Origin: Paraspadella gotoi
Taxonomy: Eukaryota > Animalia > Chaetognatha
Assembly (NCBI GenBank): GCA_051294375.1
Contig: CM119265.1
Span: forward strand, 14,066,124 to 14,130,123
Reading direction: 5' to 3'
Length of the DNA stretch: 64,000 nucleotides
The notes under the pieces were generated by a model, which was given only the letters and a program-made list of their open reading frames with translations, ran no database searches and was not told where the DNA came from. Below are positions 10,963 through 59,956 of this stretch, piece after piece. The position numbers and the translations under genes are program-made. Every line of letters begins with the position of its first letter. Positions within the stretch are counted from its first letter, which is position 1.

Positions 10963-11029
<67 letters not shown>

Positions 11030-11049
11030 AGAGGGAGAGAAAGAGAGAG

Positions 11050-11587
11050 AGACACAGCAGCTGGGTGACCATAGAACTGTGATGGACACAAGAGAGACCA
11101 GGAGGAGATTAGGCGAGGCATCTAAGGCGTGTGGGAACCTATTGACAGAGCGGGATCTTAAGGAGCAGAGGAGATAAAACGTGTCTCGTTGGAAAATCGC
11201 ACGTAGGCGAGAAATCGCGTCTCGGATACTTTTTTTTTGTATCCTTTTTTTTCTCTTTTCTCATTTTTTCTCACTTTTTATTTTATCTCCCTTTCTTAGT
11301 CTTCCCCTTTTTTTGTCCATTGAGGGAAGTTTAGAGGCATATTTGTAAAATATTGCTTGATAAAAATTTTAGAAAATAATATATTGTGGACGAACCTTAA
11401 GTTACCTCTGTGTCTGTGCTAACTACTATTCTAGGAAAAGTCAGCTATCAGAAAAATAGATTCCAAAGACTATCCAATACTTAGAAGTTATACACAGTAA
11501 TCAAAGGACTATCCACAAGTCTGATTCGGAACCAGCACATAGACACTCGAGACGATCCATCCNNNNNNNNNNNNNNNNNNNNNNNNN

Positions 11588-11624
<37 letters not shown>

Positions 11625-12112
11625 AGCAGCGGGGACATAGACGATGGACACAAAGAGGACAGGAGAGATTAGGGCGAGGCATCAAGGCGGGAACCATGAC
11701 AGAGCGGATCTTAAGGAGCAGAGGAGATAAAACGTGTCTCGTTGGAAAGTCGCACGTAGGCGAGAAATCGCGTCTCGGATACTTTTTTTTTGTATCCTTT
11801 TTTTTCTCTTTTCTCATTTTTTCTCACTTTTATTTTATCTCCCTTTCTTAGTCTTCCCCCTTTTTTTGTCCATTGAGGGAAGTTTAGACGGCCTATTTGT
11901 AAAATATTGCTTGATAAAAATTTTTAGAAAATAATATATTGTGGACGAACCTTAAGTTACCTCTGTGTCTGTGCTAACTACTATTCTAGGAAAATCAGCT
12001 ATCAGAAAAATAGATTCCAAAGACTATCCAATACTTAGAAGTTATTACACAGTAATCAAAGACTATCCACAAGTCTGATTCGGAACCAGCACATAAGACA
12101 CTCGAGACGATC
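11050..12112. repeat. ~500-bp direct duplication either side of a 25-N gap (probable assembly overlap); same pattern at ~12265-12420 vs ~12820-12975
   Basis: 11050-11562 repeats at 11620-12112; the copies differ mainly by 1-nt indels and flank a run of exactly 25 N. Confidence 0.8.
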
Positions 12113-14009
12113 CACTCCTGTCTGATTAGGAAACAGGACATACTAAGACCACAAAGACAAGCCACTACTGTACGATAGGAATTAGGACATGAGACACCAA
12201 AGACTTGAGTTAATCTTATTTCTTCGCGAAATCCACTAGGATTTTCTATGTCGTAATCTCCAATTGTGTTGGTCCTGGCCGTCAGCCTGACTTTATTTTC
12301 AGCGAGTATTTCCTTTTTTGCTTGGTGTGTCATTTATGACATTGCACTGTATCAATAATTCCGAACTTTTACTCCTTATAAGTTTCAGTGAATTCCTGAA
12401 GGCGGCGCTAGCAGGTCCTTGATTTGAGGTTTTTTTTCTGTCTTAACATATACACAACCAACTAAAGATAAATTTTTTAATATAAGTGGGACATGACCGA
12501 CGGACTGGACTGACGCGACTGGATCCACGACCGTGACCGAAAAGTGACGTTATACGAGTACTCGGCCGGCGCAACTAAACACGGACATAAGNNNNNNNNN
12601 NNNNNNNNNNNNNNNNAAGCAATTGTGGGAAATAGCGAGATAAGAAAGAAAAGACTATGCATTATAGTAAAAAAGTGAGGAAAAAAGAAAGAGTGCTCAA
12701 AACCAAATAAGACAATAAGGAATAATTTGCCGATGGAATTTGTTTAGATTCTACTTTTAAATTTCAAGCAAAACAAGATTTGAAAAAATAGAACAAAACT
12801 CAATAACAAGAACGGTAATTCCAATGTGTTGTCCGGCCGCATGTGACTTTTTTTCACGAGTATTTCCCTTTTTTGCTTGGTTGTCATTATGACATGCACT
12901 GTTATCAATGAATGTCCTGTGACTTTTACTCCTTATAAGTTTCAGGTAATTCCTGAAGGCGGCGCTTAGCAGTCCAGTCTCTCTTTCAACTTACTGTAGT
13001 CATGTATTTATGTCATGTCTGACGTTATCGGGAACCGGGAATAATAATATAGATTATAGAAGCTTTGGACCTATACCTTTATTATGGCATACATAGTTTT
13101 CACACTTAAAAATGCCTCTAATTTTGTATAAAGTCGCTCCTTTGAAACTAATCAATTTTGAAAAAAAGTAATGTAACAAGAAACAGGTCGTTTGCTTCTG
13201 CAGCAATTTGCGATTTTGTTAGGTTTAGACGAAATGTCAGTCTATCCAACAAGGAAGACTACGACGACGACAACGACGAGGAAGACGACAACGACATCGA
13301 TGAAACGCTGATCATCGGCGCTCTGGGACCAGAAATTCACGGAGGGACGGTTTCTCGTGGAGGAGAGAAGAAAAGTAAAATGAAAAGAAAACCGAGGGGA
13401 AAAAAAAGGATGAGGAAAACAAGGACGAGAAGAAAAAAAGGGAGACAACACAAAAAACGACGACGACGACGACCACAACGACGACGTCGATGGCCGCTGA
13501 TTATGACAACAGAGTGAAATGAACCACAAAAACAAAGACAAAGAGAGCAGACGTACGAAAACCCAAAAAAAAGTCAGAAAAAAAAAAATTTCTGACAAAG
13601 ATCGATCGCTCTAAATGGCGAACCTTCGGAACGTTTAGGAGAAACTAAAATTAGCAGGTATACCATACAATGTATATTGTATAGTCCATACATGGAGACT
13701 GCAGTTTATTCTTCAATTTAGCCTCGATAAGAAAAAGAGTTACTTTTCGAAGTTAATATCGAAAACTTGCAAATACTGTAATGTATTTGGATCATTTTGT
13801 GTTTACCTTCTCATCCAACAGGGAGACGTCGGCCAAAGAAAAAAAAATGGAGCCAAGGAAAAAATGGCTGAGAGAAAAATGGCCGCTCGGACCTCGGCGC
13901 GAAAAAAAGTCAACAAACAAAACTCTCGATCCTTTTCTTTTTTCTTCTTGGTTAGCTTCAGTCAATAAAAGGGTTAAAAGCAAGAAAGGAGCTCAGACAT
14001 ATATTTTTA

Positions 14010-18894: not shown

Positions 18895-21100
18895 ATAAAA
18901 AAGAAAGGGAGGGAAAGAGTGCGTTTTCTGTCTTCACTTCTCTGAAATTCAGAAGAGCAAGGGTGGCCTCAAATCTCTGAGAAGCCGTTCATCACAATTA
19001 CGCCAGAAAAAAAAACAGCTTGAAGACGCAATAAAAATTTTTAAGCAGATGGCCGAAGAGAATGCCACTCTTTGATTTTATAAAATATACAAACCTTTGA
19101 AAAAAACTTGAATTGCTGTCGCTATTGCCGTTTCAGGAGCCGGACAATGGTAAAAGAGACCAATGTCGATGCATGAGAAATAGAAAGAAACCGAGTTCGA
19201 TATAAATGAAAGGAAAAAAAAAGGAAACAAAAGAAACTCGAGAGTTTCTTCTCGAAAACGGGGAGAACTCATCAATAGTCTGAATCGTTGAGAAAAAACA
19301 TAAGCGCGGGCCGCCGGGCCGGGGACAAAGACAAGACGGAATAAAACATTTTACGAGGGGAAAAGAAAGAATCTGGGGAAAGATTAAATCAAAGACGAGT
19401 CAGAATTAAACATTATACGGACCGAGGGGATGTAACTCAAAAGGATGGAGAGAAGAATCAATTTTTTTTTTAACACTCGAGACGATAACGACGCCTTTCG
19501 GTGCATTTTGTATGAAAAGCTTAATCTATTTACGTTGGTGAAAGTAAAAATCGTCAATTTATTAACAAAATCAAAATCTGGTTATCCGAAATTTATTTCA
19601 GAGACGGAAAAAATTATAAAAGCCACCAACTCTTTGCAAGACATCAGCAGCGAAGACATAAAGATGAAACGCTCGTCACATAAAAATGACGACTTTCTTA
19701 CGGAATACATGTGAATTAAAATGCAAATTCTTGTCTTAAATCCCGAGGCGAAGGAGGTGCGGAATTCTTTAAAAGCCTTTCGAGAAAGCGGCGAAAAAAA
19801 TAACCCAACAGAAACAAAATGGCAAATAATCAAGCAAACACAAACAATAAGATTTAAAAAAAAACATTTTTGCACTTAGTTTTTTACCCTTCCTTTCAAA
19901 TTACTTGTTTACACTTTTACGCTTGTTTCTAAACATTCCTCGTTACGAAAACTAGGATTTATTTTAAATTTTTGAATTCTCGTTGGGATTTTATTCTTCT
20001 CTTTATGTTTTCTCTCTCAGAACGTCGACCCCCTGACGACGCGACGGCTTCGTTTATGGGCGAAATAGAAAAAAAAAAACACAAAAAATAAATAAACAAA
20101 GAAAAAAAAGTGAAGATGGGACATAAAAGGAGAGACGAACGTGATGCGTCAGCGTTAGCGCGATGGTGAGACCCGCGAGACGAGGGTGGGAAAAGATGTG
20201 ACGTTGGTGGAATGGGGCTGATAGGACTGGGGAAAATATTAAGTAAGGAAGCAGAATTCTCGCTGTAAAACTCGAGGAATAAGATAAGAAGGGAAGATAG
20301 AAAGAAGGAAGTGAAAAAAATGAAAGAGACGCGAAAAAATTGTTAAAAAATGAATTTTTTTCTCAGATCAAAAACGCGGGAAAAAAAAATCAATTTTCAG
20401 ATCCCCTAAAAAAAGATGATTGACAACATACGTTATTAGGCCGATCTTACAATTATTTTTCGATGTTAGTTTGTTTTTTCTTTATATTTTAATGGATGTT
20501 AGGATTAAATTTTTTTTTATTCATACACTGGATATTCTAATATACAAAGATATATAATATATTTCTTTATGTACATCAGTTTCCTCTCTCTTTCTCTCAC
20601 AATTATTCCCACCTTTTTACTCTTTTTTTTAAAACCCTTTTCTCCGTTCCCCGAAATTAAAATTAATTCATCAATCGCAGATTTTATTTACCAACTCTAA
20701 TCGATTTTAAAATTTTAAAATTACAATCCAGCCTGTCATTCTGATACTTCAGATCGATTGCGTAGTTGAATTGATTTTTTTACAAACTAGTTTTTTCAAA
20801 GTCAAACCTACTTGTCAAGACCTACTTCTTTTCCTTCCCTGCTTCATGATCAGTTCTACAATTAATGACAGCCTTTTAATTTTTAGTTCTCCCTCGTATC
20901 CGTCTCATGATCGCCACTTCATCGAGAGTCCTAAGCAACAATTCGACTTTCGTGTTGACGAAAATCAAAACTTAAAAATCGAAGATCGACAATTACTATA
21001 ATCGCCGTATAGCTTGGATATAAAAAACAAAAGCAAAGTACCGAGCGCGAAAGATAATTTTGTGCGTTAAACTTTGTTTAAAAAATAATAACGATTGAAA

Positions 21101-24100
21101 ATGATGACATCGACGAAGTTTTCCAACGAGGAAACCGACGACGAAGAAATCGAGGAAGAATTAGAACATTTAAAATTTGACGACGACAACGACGACGACG
21201 ACGACGACGATGGTCGGACGTCGGTAAAAACTCCTGTCGTTGGAAAAACTTTCACGAAAGCGGAGGAGCGTTCGGTGAAGCGAACGTCCGAAAAAGGAAA
21301 GACAGTCACCGCCGAGTCAGTTATTTTAGACCGGTCCGTTGCAGTAGAAACGTCACGCGGAAAATCACAGGGTATAAATGAAAATGAGGAACCGTTGACG
21401 ACGGTAACACCGACAACAAAAACCCAAACTTCACGTGATTGCCGTGAGAAAACGTCTCACGGTCGGCGCCGACATCGCCCTCGAAAAAAATGCGCAGCTA
21501 ACAAGGAGACAAACCTCGGGTGCGACACTATGATTTTGAAAGCTTCAACGTCTGACATCGCAGCGTCTTCAGCAGCGGGAACTTCACCGACGAGGGCATC
21601 AAATGAAAAACTCACTTCCTTTAAAAAATCCCCATTAACCACTGTCGGACCAGACGGTGATTTCGCTTCAGACTCAACTCCTTTAACCGACGACGTGGCA
21701 ACGACTCACCATCCAGACATGTTGGAAAATGGTGAAGCCTTTCTAGATGAAGAGGCAGCTTCGACGTCTGGTATTCAAACGAGCCGTTCGCTCTCGATAG
21801 AAACAGAAGCCTCTTTTTCGTCTACCAGTGGGACGACTTCCGCCAATACCGCTGCTGAAACAGCCACCTCCAACAACGCCGTCAATCTTTCCAGGGCTGC
21901 TGCGAATCCTTCTCCGCCGACAACGGGAAATTCTGCGACGTTAGTGAGTCGCTACAAAAACATCCGTGCCGCCTTCAACCAAGACGGCGTCGTCGCTTAC
22001 AATCGCCTCAGCCATCTGCTGCGTCGAGTCTTTGACGGCGGAGGCAACGGTGGCGCCTCGGGCGGCGTTTCGCTGGAGGAAGAAGCGGCGTCTTTAATCA
22101 ACGCCGCCGGACGAGGTGACATCGACGGATGCCGCAAAATTCTGTCGTCCCGAGAGTCGGCCAACCTTCTCGCCAACGCCAAGATCGAGGGTCATACGGC
22201 TTTGCACGTGGCGGCCCGTCACGGCCACGCCAAGGCCGCGTTGACGCTGCTACGTCATGGCGGCGACCCTCAGGCGGTTGACGCTGACGGAAACAACGCT
22301 CTCCATCATGCCGCCATCGGGAACGAACCTCACGTCATCGTCGCTCTCGTGGAAGGGCGACGAGGGACGGAGGGATCGGCGGGCGCGGGCGCCGCCGATT
22401 TACGATTATCGACGAATCGAAGAATCTTAAAGAACGAAGTGACTTCGCGATCGAAAGTCGTCGGCGTCAACTCTTTGGTCGAATTTTCTCCCCCTTGCGA
22501 CCTCAACGCCAGAAACGGCGACAAGAAGACGGCGCTTCATTTGGCCATCGCCCGGGGTTTCCCCGAAGTGGTTCGTCAACTGCTCGTTCTCGGCGCCCAT
22601 CCCAATCTGCAGGACGACCTCGGTTCGACTCCGCTTCACGAGTCAGTCAGACACCCGGGAAACGAGGATGTCACGGCGTTGCTGTTGCGTCACAAGGCCG
22701 ACATCACCATGACTGACAACAATGGATGCAATCCGATTCACTTGGCCGCCATATTGGTGTGTTTTACTTAATTACTATCTATACTGCTTTACATGTACAA
22801 AAGACTAAATATTTTTGATTTGTTATTCTAATTATAGTATGCAGTATTGTATATGTATGTATATGTATATATGTATGTATGTATATTTTTGGGACGATTT
22901 TATAGGGAAAACTTTTAAAGACAAACCACTACGTACAAAATCAAAAAAGCAATCTTTTAATCACAGGGTAACCTCGGCAGCATGCACTTGCTGATGCTAC
23001 GCGTCCAACCCCACTTTTCATGGTTGGCAACGGCGCAGCGCGAGGAGGACGGATTCACGGCTCTGCACATGGCGGCATTGCGGGGCCACGCGAAGATAGT
23101 CGAATGCCTTTTGACCCGTGGGAAATGCGACCCGAACATTCGCGCGACAAAGACTTTGCAAACGGCACTGCATCTCGCCGTCGATCGGCGACGCTTCGAG
23201 GTTGTTCGCATCCTCATCCTCATAGGAAAATGTAACGTCAATGCGACAGACAAGGACGGTGACACCCCGCTGCACGAAGCGTTACGTCATCACACTTTGC
23301 TACAACTCAAGCAGCTCGAAGAAGTTTGTTGCAAGAGCACTGAGGTAAATTGGAAAAATAATTGCCGCGGTAGGGCGTATATAAATGGTCTTACATCATG
23401 ATTATTTCAGAGTATCGCCGATTCGGCATTGAGTTCTTCGTGTTCTTCACTCACAACGCCACTCGTTTCCGAAGCGGCTCCTCCGCAGACGTCAAGTAAA
23501 GAGCATCCAACTTCCGATTCTTCACTCAAACGGCCAATCCCTCAGTCCGCCAACTCGTCTGAGCTCAAGCCCCTCGTCGATTGCAACCTCGATCTGCAGC
23601 AAAACCAAAAGTCATTCGGAGCGATTTCCATTTTTCTGGTGGAAAACGGCGCCGACATACATCAGAAAAACGTCAAGGAGCAATCGCCCGTGGATTTGTG
23701 TCCGGATCCGCACCTGCACAGAGTTCTGGTCAAGTCCTACGAGGACGTGTTGCGGGGGAAGAAGACAGCGAAGGAGCAGATCCGTCGTGTCGACGTCTAC
23801 GAGCCGCCGCATCACAGATTCAGAGATTTCGCCTTGGCCAACATCAACGGAAATACTCAGGTTGACTTCAATTATAGAGAAAAAAAAACACTTTGTTATA
23901 ACTTATTTATTATCACAACTTCGCCATCAAGGATCGAAAACTGCGATCAAAATCGGCGAAACGCCTGGACGGACGCGACATCGTCGCTCAAAAATACGCG
24001 GGAGAGGCCGTCCACGCGGCGACCAACCCCAGCGACTCTAACGCGGCCAAGAAAAACTCGTCGGACGCGTTCGACGCGCTGGTCGCTCAAAAAGTCTCCG

Positions 24101-24318
24101 ACGCAGAGAAGAGAGAAGCTGAATCCACAGAAATCGCCAAACTGCAGCAGCAACTGTTCGACCTTCGCCGTCGCATCACTTGTCCCGTTTGTCTCGACAG
24201 GCTCAAGGTCATGGTCTTTCTCTGCGGACACGGAACTTGCCAACTTTGTGGTGATGAACTCAACTCCTGCCCCATTTGCCGCAAGATCGTCCAGAAGAAG
24301 ATCCTGTTGTACAACTGA
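21101..24318 (+). CDS. mib: Mind bomb-like ankyrin-repeat/RING E3 ubiquitin ligase; exons 21101-22756, 22967-23344, 23411-23860, 23932-24318
   Basis: [10 protein letters not shown]...LINAAGRGD entry to the ankyrin block, ankyrin repeats ([48 protein letters not shown]), post-ankyrin DLCPDP, coiled coil KLQQQL, terminal [48 protein letters not shown] as in MIB1. Confidence 0.9.
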
Positions 24319-41174: not shown

Positions 41175-41218
<44 letters not shown>

Positions 41219-41244
41219 AGACGAGAGAGAGAGAGAGAGATAGA

Positions 41245-42515
41245 GAGAGAGAAAGAAAGAGAAGATAGCAATTCACCGGGGAAAGGTTTCACGTCTGACG
41301 AAGAATCGACCTCTCGCTTATCGTTTCTCACAAATCGGCTCAACATTCGACTCACGCCTTGCAAAACTTTGCACGCAATCACAAAAAATATAACGACGAA
41401 AGATTTTTTATCATTATTATGATTACGATAGTCTAGTCACGCGATTGAAAACGTCTTTTTTTTTACAAAGTGCTCGTGATTAAAACTTAAATAATCTAGA
41501 AAAAGTCCCTCGTTTTCAAGGACCCAAGATTCCCATCCCGAGAGTGGGTTTAATCGCGTTCTTTATCCCGGCTTCCTGAACCGGCGAAGCGGAGAGGGAG
41601 AATCTTTGTCCTCGGCTTCCTACTTTGTCTTTGCCAATATATAATGTTTTGATTCAAGGTTAATCGAGGTTCGTCGCGTAGCATTTCTCCGCTCCGTGTT
41701 GGCACGGGCTGCTCTTCTTTAAAAATTTTTAAATAAAATTTCAACCTAAAATTTTTTATATCAGAACGACTTTTATAGAAGAGCAAATTAAAAAAAATTA
41801 AATTCAGGGATATCCTGTATCTTTTTTTCTACAAATTTAGTTGCCTTTTATTGTCGTTCATTTCCTGGACCCATGATACGAGACCAATATTCAGAGAGTT
41901 CCAACTCTGAATTTCACGTTGGGACCTTTTCTGTTAATGAGGAGTTGGCAGGAAAAAAAGGGAAAAAGTTGCAAAAAAGAAAACGAGGAAATAAATGGTG
42001 TGAGACAAAGGATGGTTGAGGGGTAACACGGAAGAATAGGACGATGCCCTCTACTGCAGGTTGGAAGATAGGTTTAATGAAGAAATAAAGTGTACCATAA
42101 TGTCGTTTAATCAATAAGATAGTTTCAAAATACTCCTTGACCGTAATAATGCGAGGTTATTTTGTAAAAAAAAAGTTTTAAACAAAGTTCTATCCAATTC
42201 GAAATTTGAAATCTATAGACTTAAAAACATACAAAAAATAGATTAGCTAAGATTGAAGAGTGAAGAACCGAAAAAGGGTGACGAAAACTTTCCCGGGGGG
42301 GGGTGAAGGGAGAGGCGTGGCGGGTATCGCGTTCGACGTTCACGCCTCACGTGAGCCAACGACTCTCGCTTATTTCCAGTCAAACAAATGCACAGGCCTT
42401 TAATGGGAAAAGCGCCAACGAGAAGGCAGGCGTTCTTCTGTATTTCCGATTCGTTGAATTTATACGCCTTTCTATTTTTTATCCCCTTATCTATCTTCAT
42501 ATCCTCCCATCCTCT

Positions 42516-42593
<78 letters not shown>

Positions 42594-43820
42594 CGTCCTT
42601 ACTTTGCGTTTTCATGGATTTTTCCTCTCCGCCTGCCTTCTCGTTGGCGCTTTTCCCATTAAAGGCTGTGCATTGTTTTGACTGGAAATAAGCGAGAGTC
42701 GTTGGCTCACGTGAGGCGTGAACGTCGAACGCGATAACCGCACGCCCTCTCCCTTCACTCCCCTCCCGGGAAAGTTTTCGTCACCCTTTTTCGTTCTTCA
42801 CTCTTCAATCTTAGCTAATCTATTTTTTGTATGTTTTTTAAGTCTATAGATTTCAAATTCGAATTGGATAGAAGTTTGTTTAAAACTTTTTTTTTACAAA
42901 ATAACCTCGCATTATTACGGTCAAGGAGTATTTTGAAACTATCTTATTGATTAAACGACATTATGGTACACTTTATTCTTCATTAAACCTATCTTCCAAC
43001 CTGCAGTAGAGGGCATCGTCCTATTCTTCCGTGTTTACCCCTCAACCATCCTTTGTCTCACACCATTTATTTCCCTCGTTTTCTTTTTTTTGCAACTTTT
43101 TCCCTTTTTTCCTGCCAACTCCTCATTAACAGAAAAGGTCCAACGTGAAATTCAGAGTTGGAACTCTCTGAATATTGGCCTCGTATCATGGGTCGCAGGA
43201 AATGAACGACAATAAAAGGCAACTAAATTTGTAGAAAAAAAGATACAGGATATCCCTGAATTAAATTTTTTTAATTTGCTCTTCTATAAAAGTCTTCTGA
43301 TATAAAAAATTTTAGGTTGAAATTTATTTAAAAATTTTTAAAGAAGAGCAGCCCGTGCCAACACGGAGCGGAGAAATGCTACGCGACGAACATCGATTAA
43401 CCTTGAATCAAACATTATATATTGGCAAAGACAAAGTAGGAAGGCCGAGGACAAAGATTCTCCCTCTCCGCTTCGCCGGTTCAGGAAGCCGGGATAAAGA
43501 ACGCGATTAAACCCACTCTCGGGATGGGAATCTTGGGTCCTTGAAAACGAGGGACTTTTCTAGATTAATTTTAAGTTTTAATCACGAGCACTTTGTAAAA
43601 AAAAGACGTTTTCAATCGCGTGACTAGACTATCGTAATCATATATAATGATAAAAAAATCTTTCGTCGTTATTTTTTTGTGATTGCGTGCAAAGTTTTTG
43701 CAAGGCGTGAGTCGAATGTTGAGCCGATTTTGGTGAGAAACGATAAGCGAGAGGTCGATTCTTCGTCAGACTGTGAAACCTTTCCCCGGTGAATTGCTAT
43801 CTTCTCTTTCTTTCTCTCTT
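41245..43820. repeat. Inverted duplication 1: ~1.19-kb arms (41245-42432 / 42630-43820) with a 197-bp spacer
   Basis: Arms are reverse complements up to the spacer junction (…GAAGGCAGGCG | CGCCTGCCTTC…), differing mostly by homopolymer indels. Confidence 0.92.
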
Positions 43821-44514
43821 CTATTTCTTCCTCTCTTCTCTTCTCNNNNNNNNNNNNNNNNNNNNNNNNNTGAGAGATGAAATTAGCTCCGACAACGGAT
43901 AGGCAATTAGACGAGCAGTCTTATCGCCTTAACAGCCTCAAGGACGCTGAAAATGAATTCTGCTTTCATGCGGAGAAATTGAAGGACGAGGCACTCGAAT
44001 GCGGTATCTGCAAAAAAAATAAAAAAAGCGGCAAAAAATATGTCTTTCTATCAACGTAGTAAAAGAAATATAGATATTAATGAATAGTATAATATAAAAA
44101 TATTATATATATTTAAAGATACGATGATAATTATCCCATTCAAGCAATACATCGATATCAATATATTATTATATTAATTTAATATAAATTCTCCAATCTC
44201 AACGAATATTTATATATCAACAAAGATATTGAGGACATCAAATATAACAGAGAATACTTACCCAAAGTCGGACGTGACGTTGACAGCGCGGCAAGTGTTG
44301 GCGCACTTGAGGGGAAAAAAAGGTTGCGCACACGGGGACACGTCGCCCGGAGACAAGAAAAAATACGCCGGGGGTAAGGAAAAAGGGTAAGTGAGGCTTC
44401 AAATGGAATTTACGCGAATCGAAAAGCCGCAGCCGCAATATGTTTAATTGGATTTGGAGACATTTTATGACGCTCGGGACGCGCTCCCTTTCGCAAGGAC
44501 CAAATCTTCGCTCG

Positions 44515-56128: not shown

Positions 56129-57227
56129 TTTCTGGCCAAGTCATTAACCTGCAGCATAAGCCGAGTTATGAACATTTTAAACGTAAGTGGGATAGACCAA
56201 CTGACCGACCAAACAAACGCCCGACCAAAAGGTGACTTATACAGATGCACATAGAAACACTAAAGACTTGCCAATTCACACGTCGAATCCCATGCCATTG
56301 CCTCTTGATCCGCGGATGTGGGCTCCAAGTTCAGGGAGTTATTTTCTTATCAATCTACGAATTTGGCCTCCAAGTCCCTGATGCCATTGCCTCTTGATCC
56401 GCGGATTTTGGCCTCCAAGTTCATGGAGTTATTTCTTTCAATCTACGAATTTTGGCCTCCAAGTCCCTGATGCCATTGCCTCTCAATCCGCGGATGTGGG
56501 CCTCCAAGTTCATGGAGTTATTTCTTATCAATCTACGAATTTTGGCCTCCAAGTCCCTGATGGCCCATAGCCTCTCAATCCGCGGGATGTTGGCCTCGAA
56601 GTCCCGGACGTCGTTTTCTCATTTCCTTTCGATCCGCGGATTTCGGCCTCGAGGTTTTTCAGACCTTGAGAGTTTCATGGTTTCGTGTCGAACGATAATT
56701 TTGCATTTTTGAATTAATTTTACGGATTTGAAACTCTGGAGAGTTTTTAAGTGCGCCGTTTGTTTTTGTTTTTTTTTTTGTTTTGCAGTGAAAAAAGATG
56801 ATAGTTTTCTCGAACAAAAAATACCGTCAATGTTTACTTTCACTTTTGTGATCGTGTCTTATCGAAAAAGTTGCTAAAGCAAAAAATAAGTTTAACGAAA
56901 GTTTCTTTGACAATATTTATCCGTTTGCCGGCCCCTCCCCCAAATGAGTCTTCTTCTTCCTCTCATCTATACCCCTCTTCTTCTCTCTCCTCTCTCTCCC
57001 CCTCCTCTCTTCTCCTCTCTTTCAACGACACTCCGACCTAATATGTCCGTCCGATCAAATTCATAAATTCCAAATCGTGATATGAATATGGATAATTTGC
57101 CGCCTCGTTCTCGTTCTGCTTGCATCGGTGTTCTGCGTCACCATAATTTTTTTTTTCTTCTGTATTTCCGATTCGTTGAATTATACGCCTTCTATTTTTA
57201 CCCCTTATCTATCTTCATATCCTCCCA

Positions 57228-57300
<73 letters not shown>

Positions 57301-58390
57301 TCTCTCTCTCTCTCTCTCTCTCTCAGTCGTCCTTACTTTGCGTTTTCATGGATTTTTCCTCTTCAAAAAAAATTATGGTGACGCAGAACACCGATGCAAG
57401 AGCAGAACGAGAACGAGGCGGCAAATTATCCATATTCATATCACGATTTGGAATTTATGAATTTGATCGGACGGACATATTAGGTCGGAGTGTCGTTGAA
57501 AGAGAGGAAGAGAGGAGGGGGAGAGAGAGAGAGAGAGAGAGGGGTATAGAATGAGAGGGAAGAAGAAGCTCATTTGGGGGAGGGGGCCGGCAAACGGATA
57601 AATATTGTCAAAGAAACTTTCGTTAAACTTATTTTTTGCTTTAGCAACTTTTTCGATAAGACACGATCACAAAAATGAAAGTAAACATTGACGGTATTTT
57701 TTGTTCGAGAGAAACTATCATCTTTTTTTCACTGCAAAACAAAAAAAAAACAAAAACAAAAAACGGCGCACTTAAAAACTCTCCAGAGTTTCAAATCCGT
57801 AAAATTAATTCAAAAATGCAAAATTATCGTTCGACACGAAACCATGAAACTCTCAAGGTCTGAAAAACCTCGAGGCCGAAATCCGCGGATCGAAAGGAAA
57901 TGAGAAAACGACGTCCGGGACTTCGAGGCCAACATCCGCGGATTGAGAGGCTATGGGCCATCAGGGACTTGGAGGCCAAAATTCGTAGATTGATAAGAAA
58001 TAACTCCATGAACTTGGAGGCCCACATCCGCGGATTGAGAGGCAATGGCATCAGGGACTTGGAGGCCAAAATTCGTAGATTGAAAAGAAATAACTCCATG
58101 AACTTGGAGGCCAAAATCCGCGGATCAAGAGGCAATGGCATCAGGGACTTGGAGGCCAAATTCGTAGATTGATAAGAAATAACTCCCTGAACTTGGAGGC
58201 CCACATCCGCGGATCAAGAGGCAATGGCATGGATTCGACGTGTGAATTGGCAAGTCTTTAGTGTTTCTATGTGCATCTGTATAAGTCACCTTTTGGTCGG
58301 GCGTTTGTTTGGTCGGTCAGTTGGTCTATCCCACTTACGTTTAAAATGTTCATAACTCGGCTTATGCTGCAGGTTAATACTTGGCAGAAA
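56129..58390. repeat. Inverted duplication 2: ~1.03-kb arms (56129-57154 / 57365-58390) with a 210-bp spacer nearly identical to that of duplication 1
   Basis: Arms are reverse complements (…CACCATAATTTTTTTT | AAAAAAAATTATGGTG…); the spacer TTCTTCTGTATTTCCGATTCG…(CT)n…CATGGATTTTTCCTC matches 42433-42629. Confidence 0.92.
56290..56610. repeat. 90-bp tandem repeat (two ~45-bp subunits, ~3.5 copies); mirrored at ~57910-58230
   Basis: ATGCCATTGCCTCT…GGCCTCCAAGTTCATGGAGTTATTTCTT…GGCCTCCAAGTCCCTG recurs every 90 nt. Confidence 0.88.
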
Positions 58391-59175
58391 GGTGCTTAAT
58401 GTGCATATGTTTCATACTTGTGCAGTCACATTGTCGTATGAAAAAGCATCTACAAAAGAAAGTTAATGAGGCACAACACGTTGAACTCCTCGGTTCTTCT
58501 CCTTTTTTTTGTTTTGCGCCAGAGGAGGCTACAAAAGTAAGCAGAGGACGCCCCATTCCGACGCGCACAACGTTCGCGTTGGGGGGGACGGCGGGGACGC
58601 CAACGCACTCCAGCGATCGATAGACCTTGCCTCTGACGCTATGACTTGCTGGTGCAACCGCCGCAGTCCGCAAGATTTCTACCTCACTGGTCGATATCCA
58701 AGACTAACGCTTGTCACCGTCAGTAACTTTTCGTTTCTTAACCTCTTTCAACTTACCTTTCTTCTTCCTCACCTCTTCACCTTCTCTCCTTTTACACTCC
58801 AGTCGGCTCAAAACCTCACCTCCGCTCCACCTCGCTTGCGCTCCACCTTAACTCCACTCAGGACGAAGCGACGACGACAAAATAGAATTTCATCGCTTTT
58901 CCCTCGCTGACGTCGAGAAAAATTATTTATTAATAACTCTCTGTCGAAGCCACATCTGAAAATTAGTAAGCGGGGATTAAAAAAAAAAAAAGCGCACTAA
59001 TTCTAAATTACATATAACGCTTTAATGAAATTGTTGTAATCCGAAAATCTTCAGAATAGGATTAATACCTAATTCAGTAATGAACTAAAGTCATTTATTT
59101 TTTTAATTTATCTAAAGTCTTGTAGTCGGGCATTGCCTAGGTTCACCCCGCCTATAAGCATGACCTTCAGTCCTG

Positions 59176-59236
59176 ACCTGGTGGCTCATTGAGTAAAGCC
59201 ATCAGCTCATGACCACTAGGTACCGGGTTCAATCCC
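59176..59236 (+). promoter_or_regulatory. tRNA-like internal Pol III promoter (A-box-like TGGCTCATTGAG 59182-59193; B box GGTTCAATCC 59226-59235), repeated at ~59588-59641
   Basis: Box sequences and spacing resemble tRNA D and T arms; no T4 terminator within the unit. Confidence 0.7.
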
Positions 59237-59252
59237 AACCTGTACCTACCCT

Positions 59253-59334
59253 GCGGGAAGCGTCAGAGGACGGCCGTAAGCCGCCTTGGGGGCGTGGCCA
59301 ACCCCTCAAGCCTGGTTCCAAGCCCAGGACCCGT
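59253..59334 (+). ncRNA. Twister-like self-cleaving ribozyme, P5-permuted, copy 1 (predicted cut T59277/A59278)
   Basis: P5 GCGGG/CCCGT; GAGGA; TAA; GCC; P3 TTGGGGG/CCCCTCAA; G-CCTGG-T-TCC-AA-GC-CCAGG-A. T1 (TCC with GGA) and T2 (GC with GC) can form. P2 is imperfect and P4 has 5 bp rather than the usual 4. Confidence 0.65.
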
Positions 59335-59659
59335 TCCATGGCACTAAAGGGGGTTATAGAAGTTACGGATAGTCATCTTCAGCCCACTTAGCGCCTTATC
59401 CACACTGGTGAGCCCATCCTGTCGAGCGTATTCCAACCTTCTGATTCCAGGCCCATGGACGTGCTGAAAATTGCTCCCCTCCCTCACTGCGAAGCAGGCA
59501 GGGTGGGTTACAATCTGGGGGGCATGTAGTCGGGCATTGCCTAGGTTCACCCCGCCTATAAGCATGACACCTTCAGTCCTGACCCGGTGGCTCATTGAGT
59601 AAAGCCATCAGCTCATGACCACTAGGTACCGGGTTCAATCCCAACCTGGTACCTACCCT

Positions 59660-59739
59660 GCGGGAAGCGTGAGGAAGGCCGTAAGCCGGCCTTGGGGGCG
59701 TGGCAACCCCTCAAGCCTGGTTCCAAGCCCAGGACCCGT
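59660..59739 (+). ncRNA. Twister-like ribozyme, copy 2 (predicted cut T59682/A59683)
   Basis: Same elements as copy 1: GCGGG-AA-GCGT-GAGGA-aggccg-TAA-GCCG-GCC-P3-GCCTGGTTCCAAGCCCAGGA-CCCGT. Confidence 0.65.
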
Positions 59740-59956
59740 TCCATGGCTACTAAAAGGGGGTTATAAAGTCACGCGATAGTCATCTTCAGCCCACTTAGCG
59801 CCTTATCCACAGTCTAATCAACGTTTTGAACAAATCTAAACTTTATCTTTTACTCAGAAGGCAGTATAATCGTATAAGAATCATTCACCGGAAAAAAAAA
59901 GAAAGAAAGATAGATTTTAAGAAAGAAAGAGAGAGAGAGAGAAGAGAGAAGAGAGA

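Follow-up and report, generated by a model that had tools for sequence, protein, structure and literature searches.

Helenus elements (TRIMp3) are TRIMs that carry a tRNA-like sequence in the LTR, a primer-binding site (PBS), a polypurine tract (PPT) and, in animals, a 4-bp target-site duplication (TSD), and they are described as probably moved by Gypsy elements (Kojima, 2024; PMC10886601). LTR retrozymes, in the account given in a 2026 preprint, are elements with type III hammerheads that occur mainly in plants. Each of the components treated below, namely Helenus, LTR retrozymes and the twisters of animal retroelements, is already known; in the literature searched, neither a twister-bearing LTR element nor a ribozyme-bearing Pol III TRIM was found (subscription journals, Repbase and Dfam lay outside the scope of that search). 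Likewise, the available text of the Helenus survey makes no link to ribozymes beyond the title of one reference (PMC10886601).

One element in the window (the whole stretch of DNA analysed, 64 kb) is compared here with these systems. It is read as a gene-less Helenus-type TRIM whose twister-type LTR folds likely cut a predicted Pol III transcript, giving a 405-nt RNA circle that would be copied by a Gypsy helper, i.e., as an animal LTR retrozyme, and we judge the chances of this reading to be about even. The host is an animal: two products are encoded in the window, an ankyrin plus RING protein (gene at 21092-24318) and a bHLH fragment (exon at 2486-2848), which we presume to be mind bomb-like and USF-like, respectively. 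A search for homologues of an ankyrin fragment from the window gave no placement at the level of the phylum.

Architecture and family of the element

The element (59121-59811) spans 691 bp, made up of a 284-bp LTR, a 120-bp body and a 287-bp LTR, and its parts are as follows:

59117..59120, no strand: 5' target-site duplication GTCT (given the flank composition, a 4-bp match has a probability of about 0.009)
59121..59404, + strand: 5' LTR, 284 bp, TGT..ACA (from the repeat alignment and contig loose ends at 59404)
59405..59524, + strand: non-coding internal region, 120 bp (contigs listed for runs X1, X2 and X5 run across it from the LTR)
59406..59415, + strand: putative primer-binding-site motif starting TGG, one base past the LTR
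59517..59522, + strand: polypurine-tract-like G6, two bases ahead of the 3' LTR
59525..59811, + strand: 3' LTR, 287 bp, TGT..ACA (from the repeat alignment and contig loose ends before 59525)
59812..59815, no strand: 3' target-site duplication GTCT (same 4 bp on both flanks of the copy)

The LTRs align with 277 matches, 3 substitutions and 11 gap columns (284/287-bp repeat alignment), and no third repeat copy occurs anywhere in the 64-kb window. The initial annotation had described 1.7 head-to-tail copies of a unit, left as a 1.7-mer with offset ends by reverse transcription around a circle. Two copies 404-407 bp apart are indeed present, but they form an LTR-body-LTR element with ends fixed across the family and not a partial tandem, and the supposedly offset ends proved to be LTR termini accompanied by a PBS-like motif, a G-tract and a 4-bp TSD. 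The (A)GTCT duplication annotated with them is a target duplication, reduced in extent to the 4-bp GTCT outside the TGT..ACA ends. The body begins with C-TGG and finishes with G6-CA. The primer-site-like motif shares 9 of its 10 bases with the tRNA-Trp class of Fig. S2 of Kojima (2024) and matches no class there exactly; self-priming was ruled out, the best self-complement to the motif reaching 9/14. The single ORF of at least 75 aa that overlaps the element has no Pfam match, and no helper retrotransposon domain was found among the 60 window ORFs scanned (mostly from 44-64 kb).

Contigs of public sequencing runs were placed on the element region using 5 of 14 runs, the main four of which (X2, X1, X5 and X9) come from three studies, one of them possibly the source of the assembly. 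These four contributed 7944, 7585, 3064 and 622 contigs, respectively, X10 contributed 3, and biofilm runs made up small shares. The strongest of the loose ends listed fall at 59404 in 91, 98, 60 and 23 contigs (X2, X1, X5 and X9) and before 59525 in 84, 85 and 39 contigs (X2, X1 and X5), and the sequence past both fixed ends consists of dissimilar AT-rich flanks (agreement 0.38-0.45); contigs of X9, guessed to be an RNA run, have genomic-type flanks. The loose ends are the mark of many insertions with fixed LTR termini. Additionally, the family is abundant in the genome: summed depth in X2 is 145 on the flank and reaches 62,000 to 1.7 million in bins within the element, depths being distinct from copy numbers. 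Further subfamilies split off at 59545 and 59748, near both LTR ends, with the core unchanged. The body-to-3'-LTR join and the left flank join are not spanned by 31 bases in any of the contigs listed, and the 15 contig joints listed out of 222 include no empty insertion site.

Collectively, the element shares with Helenus, as described by Kojima (2024; PMC10886601), a non-coding TRIM of less than 1 kb, TG..CA LTRs with tRNA-like A/B boxes, a putative TGG primer site, a purine tract in PPT position, a 4-bp TSD and a high copy number, and its assignment as a Helenus TRIM is highly probable. The fixed LTR termini, the primer-site-like motif, the G-tract and the 4-bp TSD point to insertion by an LTR-retrotransposon integrase. 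Of the initial classification, a non-autonomous element with a predicted product of about 405 nt survives in outline, and the class itself, a non-LTR retrozyme of the Sm-alpha or newt type, does not. A related possibility is a SINE-like, non-LTR tandem retrozyme, whose 1.7-mer with offset ends would stem from target-primed reverse transcription. A tRNA head followed by a ribozyme resembles what is described for schistosome Sm-alpha (PMC6765202), and the unit of about 400 nt would suit such an element. However, the TG..CA ends are fixed in dozens of contigs per run, the TGG motif and the G-tract sit at the LTR borders beside a 4-bp TSD, and metazoan non-LTR retrozymes are described as having longer TSDs and neither LTR, PBS nor PPT (PMC7229834); we regard this origin as extremely improbable.

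Elsewhere in the window, two long inverted duplications (41218-43845 and 56129-58390) have arms of 1.0-1.2 kb that are 96-97% alike and enclose GA/CT microsatellites; the arms differ by 37 and 24 gap columns versus 9 and 1 substitutions, and both structures could be fold-back elements or amplification/assembly chimeras. Tandem arrays of 45/90 bp at 56292-56605 and 57920-58230 are mirror arms of the second inverted duplication, and a direct duplication of about 540 bp (93% alike) occupies 11018-12114. Since these inverted duplications differ mostly by indels, as the two LTRs do, some copy-specific indels of the LTRs may be assembly errors. The same resemblance to large, near-identical and indel-rich duplications would fit a reading in which the two copies of the element are themselves a product of assembly or amplification, or in which the twister-like motif treated below arose by chance. 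Both are very improbable in view of the TSD and the PBS-like and PPT-like motifs at the borders, the recurrence of the family ends in independent runs and the failure of any of 30,000 shuffles to match the motif descriptor.

The tRNA-type promoter motifs occupy equivalent positions in the two LTRs:

59153..59158, + strand: TATA-like TATAAG, copy 1, 22 bp ahead of the predicted tRNA-like start (putative function)
59557-59562, + strand: TATA-like hexamer, copy 2, same position in the 3' LTR
59175..59237, + strand: tRNA-like head, copy 1, A box from 59182 and B box from 59226
59581..59643, + strand: tRNA-like head, copy 2, A box from 59588 and B box from 59632

The A and B boxes had been annotated from the start, and they hold up: their spacing of 45 is of the tRNA type, and a box pair (TRGCY, GGTTC) at tRNA spacing arose in 43 of 30,000 shuffles. 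The A box lacks the YGG typical of most Helenus, and the head is distinct from a tRNA gene, none being called on it by ARAGORN or by the Rfam tRNA model. One subfamily carries GATCGATCC at the B box, with two bases changed (contig loose-end table), letters that presumably still fit tRNA-type positions. The B box lies within the loop region of a long hairpin (59622-59655; copy 1: 59217-59249), and the majority letter at 59647 makes this hairpin more perfect. No T-run follows the head in the LTR, unlike in most published animal Helenus (by eye). The annotated lack of a T4 terminator is confirmed and extends to TTT, which is missing from the + strand of the whole element; the absence of T4 is nevertheless at chance level (5453 of 10,000 unit shuffles also lack it), and that of TTT is mildly unusual (119 of 10,000).

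The twister-type fold of the LTRs

Each LTR contains a fold with the permuted strand order of a type-P5 twister:

59253..59334, + strand: P5-permuted twister fold, copy 1, predicted cut U59277/A59278
59660..59739, + strand: P5-permuted twister fold, copy 2, predicted cut U59682/A59683 (Rfam Twister-P5, 15.5 bits)

After the head, the strands run in the order P5, GAGGA, a 6-nt P1 slot, UAA, P2, GC, P3, P4 around UUCCAAGC, A and P5, and in both copies P3 has 8 pairs, P4 has 5 and P5 has 5. T1 is formed by UCC/GGA, the complementarity of T1 and T2 and all core residues are intact in both copies, and the predicted U-A cut sites lie 405 nt apart. The initial annotation is upheld here in its permuted order of twister hallmarks, its pairing of the loop TCC with GAGGA and its cut-site spacing; the same GAGGA/UCC combination is seen in prokaryotes as well, at 16 natural-looking P5 twister loci (among L001-L069).

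P2 had rightly been called imperfect in both copies. In copy 1, two extra bases before GAGGA, missing from 69-98% of depth in the four main runs, spoil the helix and leave its first position unpaired, and in copy 2 and the family majority P2 has two pairs only, where 3-4 are expected of a twister. The majority form pairs U-R and G-C and then meets a C-C mismatch, with three bases (R-C-C) between UAA and GC. Most contigs show these three bases, as copy 1 does, which contradicts the consensus TAA-GCGC-GCC once proposed as restoring P2. A 3-nt P2 strand is known from natural P5 twisters (L064 and L068), each with three good pairs; a scan of prokaryotic genomes for the 3-nt form matched at least 120 loci, and of the 120 listed, 2 had P4 and neither of those 2 had T1. 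P1, for its part, amounts to one pair unless dimerised, short of a stem.

The Rfam twister models, suggested initially as a check, gave matches below threshold: Twister-P5 (RF02684) scored 15.4-16.8 bits versus a threshold of 37.6 (best E 0.11), and the match is confined to the P4-L4 part of the model, the consensus of which includes a long P1 hairpin but lacks P3. No Rfam hammerhead match was obtained at E up to 10. A pattern descriptor comprised the core letters, P4, T1 and spacing, with a two-pair P2 as an option. Without P2, it matched only the two LTRs in the 64 kb and none of 30,000 LTR shuffles, and it gave 0.03 matches per shuffled window. With P2, it matched copy 2 only at the element, 16 of 16 control twister loci, which were chosen by a related pattern and hence provide a weak test of its sensitivity, and 2 of 173 other loci. 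Judging from these sequence features, the fold in the LTRs is very probably twister-derived, beyond reasonable chance.

No relatives of the element were found in viral (4 loci) or metagenome (65 loci) contigs, which yielded prokaryotic twisters (best blastn E 0.08). Among these loci, L001 (1001-1075) and L018, whose contigs are equal in length, hold a P1-type twister-like motif with P3 and GAGGA/UCC, in a viral contig and below the Rfam gathering score, and L002, L057 and L068 (prokaryotic or phage) each hold two P5 twisters within about 2.4 kb.

Variation within the family was scored over 59640-59760, with shares expressed as depth-weighted contigs, not copies. Across 2330/1053/221/3 contigs, no variant of at least 4% is listed in GAGGA, P4, L4 or P5, the exception near P4 being a G added after it in 3-7% of depth. 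At the first P1 base (59676), C makes up 96% of X2 depth and T accounts for 3-14%, and either pairs with G; the first P2 base (59685) changes from G to A in 13-28% of depth, and either pairs with U. UAA shows T>A at 5.7% of X9 depth, and the P3 loop is variable across family contigs. The upstream, non-ribozyme bases at 59648-59675 are equally without listed variants. The conservation is not specific to the twister core, and copies from a single burst share letters without selection.

With pseudoknots excluded, the nested twister fold loses by 8-11 kcal/mol to a rival hairpin that buries GAGGA and the GC of T2; for three control loci, in contrast, the twister is the predicted fold. The predicted fold of the 405-nt circle (z -0.84, 62% paired) is no more stable than shuffles; retrozyme RNAs are quoted as more than 70% paired (PMC4918200). 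The better hairpin and the unremarkable circle, together with the weak P2, the one-pair P1 and the sub-threshold Rfam score, favor an ordinary Helenus TRIM that captured a twister, now inactive, and that moves by the usual linear RNA with an R repeat; the fold would then be a relic or act as a structural hairpin. In line with this, a twister seems dispensable for Helenus, since no twister loop in stem context was found in Data S1 of the published set, either by string search, which may miss matches split across lines, or on visual inspection of the animal entries (PMC10886601). Nevertheless, no core residue is lost and both pseudoknots are preserved, the most frequent change in P2 (G>A, 13-28% of depth) makes that helix stronger and the rival hairpin weaker, the core stays constant while subfamilies diverge at 59545 and 59748, and the LTR is without the post-head T-run seen by eye in most published animal Helenus. 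Loss of activity is, on balance, an explanation to be kept in mind but unlikely. T1 and T2 were shown to be critical for twister function, and P1, P2 and P4 tolerate single mutations (Kobori, 2016; PMC5113685); T1 and T2 are intact here, and self-cleavage in some family members is modestly probable.

The P1 slot is a palindrome, CGGCCG (copy 1: 59271-59276), in which one pair closes a palindromic tetraloop. Its duplex is computed at -10.7 kcal/mol (-9.7 between the two copies of the locus), and pairing of this kind would open up the rival hairpin as well. Once the first pair is set, chance alone gives a full palindrome about once in 16 cases, and it is for this reason only a lead. Amphibian retrozyme hammerheads of the same form, one base pair capped by a palindromic tetraloop, are reported to work as dimers (PMC7229834); no natural dimeric twister was found in a literature search by title and abstract. 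It can be speculated that the 5' and 3' LTR copies may fold as a double twister, in which case cutting would wait until both have been transcribed.

A predicted route through an RNA circle

If the element is an animal LTR retrozyme, Pol III would start at about 59175 in the 5' LTR and continue across the body, which is free of T-runs. A 405-nt RNA without an R repeat would then be freed by cuts at 59277/78 and 59682/83, and because double cutting removes the repeated R region, a circular template is called for. The RNA would be closed by a host ligase, and a Gypsy enzyme, with a tRNA primer on the TGG motif, would copy its way around the circle and rebuild LTR-body-LTR, with the G-tract as the second priming site, before integrase inserts the product with a 4-bp duplication. 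The same circle model is described for plant retrozymes (PMC4918200).

An active twister could also serve as an end-trimmer only: its cut would form the transcript's 3' end, standing in for a Pol III terminator, or cutting would be slow, and the template would stay linear in either case. The element is free of TTT throughout, as this would lead one to expect, and schistosome twisters are described as trimming linear retrotransposon RNA (PMC8501958). On the other hand, the site is present in both LTRs, which means that a 3' cut implies a 5' cut unless the kinetics differ, and cutting at both takes away the R repeat on which strand transfer depends (PMC4918200). Trimming without a circle is accordingly rated as improbable. 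Should the LTR retrozyme reading be true, it would suggest how the RNA ends of a Pol III TRIM are set.

Comparison with known systems

The element departs from most animal Helenus in that its head comes early in the LTR and is followed by the twister fold, whereas theirs is followed by a T-run (by eye; PMC10886601). The nearest parallels within the published set are Helenus-2_SyJa and Helenus-2_SyUm of Synergus wasps (Data S1 of PMC10886601), in whose LTRs an early tRNA head is followed directly, as read by eye, by a complete type III hammerhead with three stems, CUGAUGA and GAAA cores and about 12 bp of loop-loop complementarity. These elements resemble the present one in their 277-bp LTR and in the succession of early head and ribozyme, and the primer class listed for Helenus-2_SyJa, tRNA-Trp, is the nearest match to the primer motif found here. 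They differ in having a hammerhead instead of a twister and bodies of about 485 bp with T4 runs.

The layout of an LTR retrozyme is present as well, with a putative PBS and a twister-type fold in place of the type III hammerhead. As described by Cervera et al. (2016; PMC4918200), plant LTR retrozymes are likewise non-coding, with a ribozyme in each LTR, a PBS, a PPT, a 4-bp TSD and a predicted circle between the cuts; in contrast, they use a type III hammerhead and a tRNA-Met primer, their circles of 600-1000 nt are shown by experiment, and the available account describes no tRNA-type promoter. The metazoan non-LTR retrozymes and Sm-alpha are also small animal elements, with circles of 170-400 nt predicted or shown and, in amphibians, dimer-dependent ribozymes, but they are tandem arrays of type I hammerheads that have no LTR, PBS or PPT and are linked to Penelope-like elements (PMC7229834; PMC7761336; bioRxiv 10.64898/2026.07.22.740005).

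As for the ribozyme, the element shares with type-P5 twisters (RF02684) the strand order, GAGGA, UAA, GC, the UUCCAAGC loop and T1/T2 complementarity, and adds a P3 arm, a one-pair palindromic P1 and a two-pair P2, at a score below half the threshold; the Rfam P5 model misses this form of twister. The twister T-variants at the 5' end of Perere-3 provide another weak-P1 twister in an animal retrotransposon, although that element is an autonomous non-LTR retrotransposon with P1-type permutation and one ribozyme per element (Liu et al., 2021; PMC8501958).

In its widest form, the comparison suggests an animal LTR retrozyme with its own Pol III promoter and a twister pair domain-swapped between its two LTRs, which would restrict cutting and circularisation to complete transcripts; together with the Synergus hammerhead elements, it would make up a hidden sub-class of Helenus that adopted different ribozymes independently and replicates through RNA circles; this broader proposal is a tentative one, and we consider it doubtful as a whole. 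If true, an abundant animal Helenus with twisters in both LTRs would link Helenus with LTR retrozymes, circle-based LTR retrotransposition would reach beyond plants into animals and would involve a second class of ribozyme, and a partner-dependent twister would be the counterpart of the double hammerhead.
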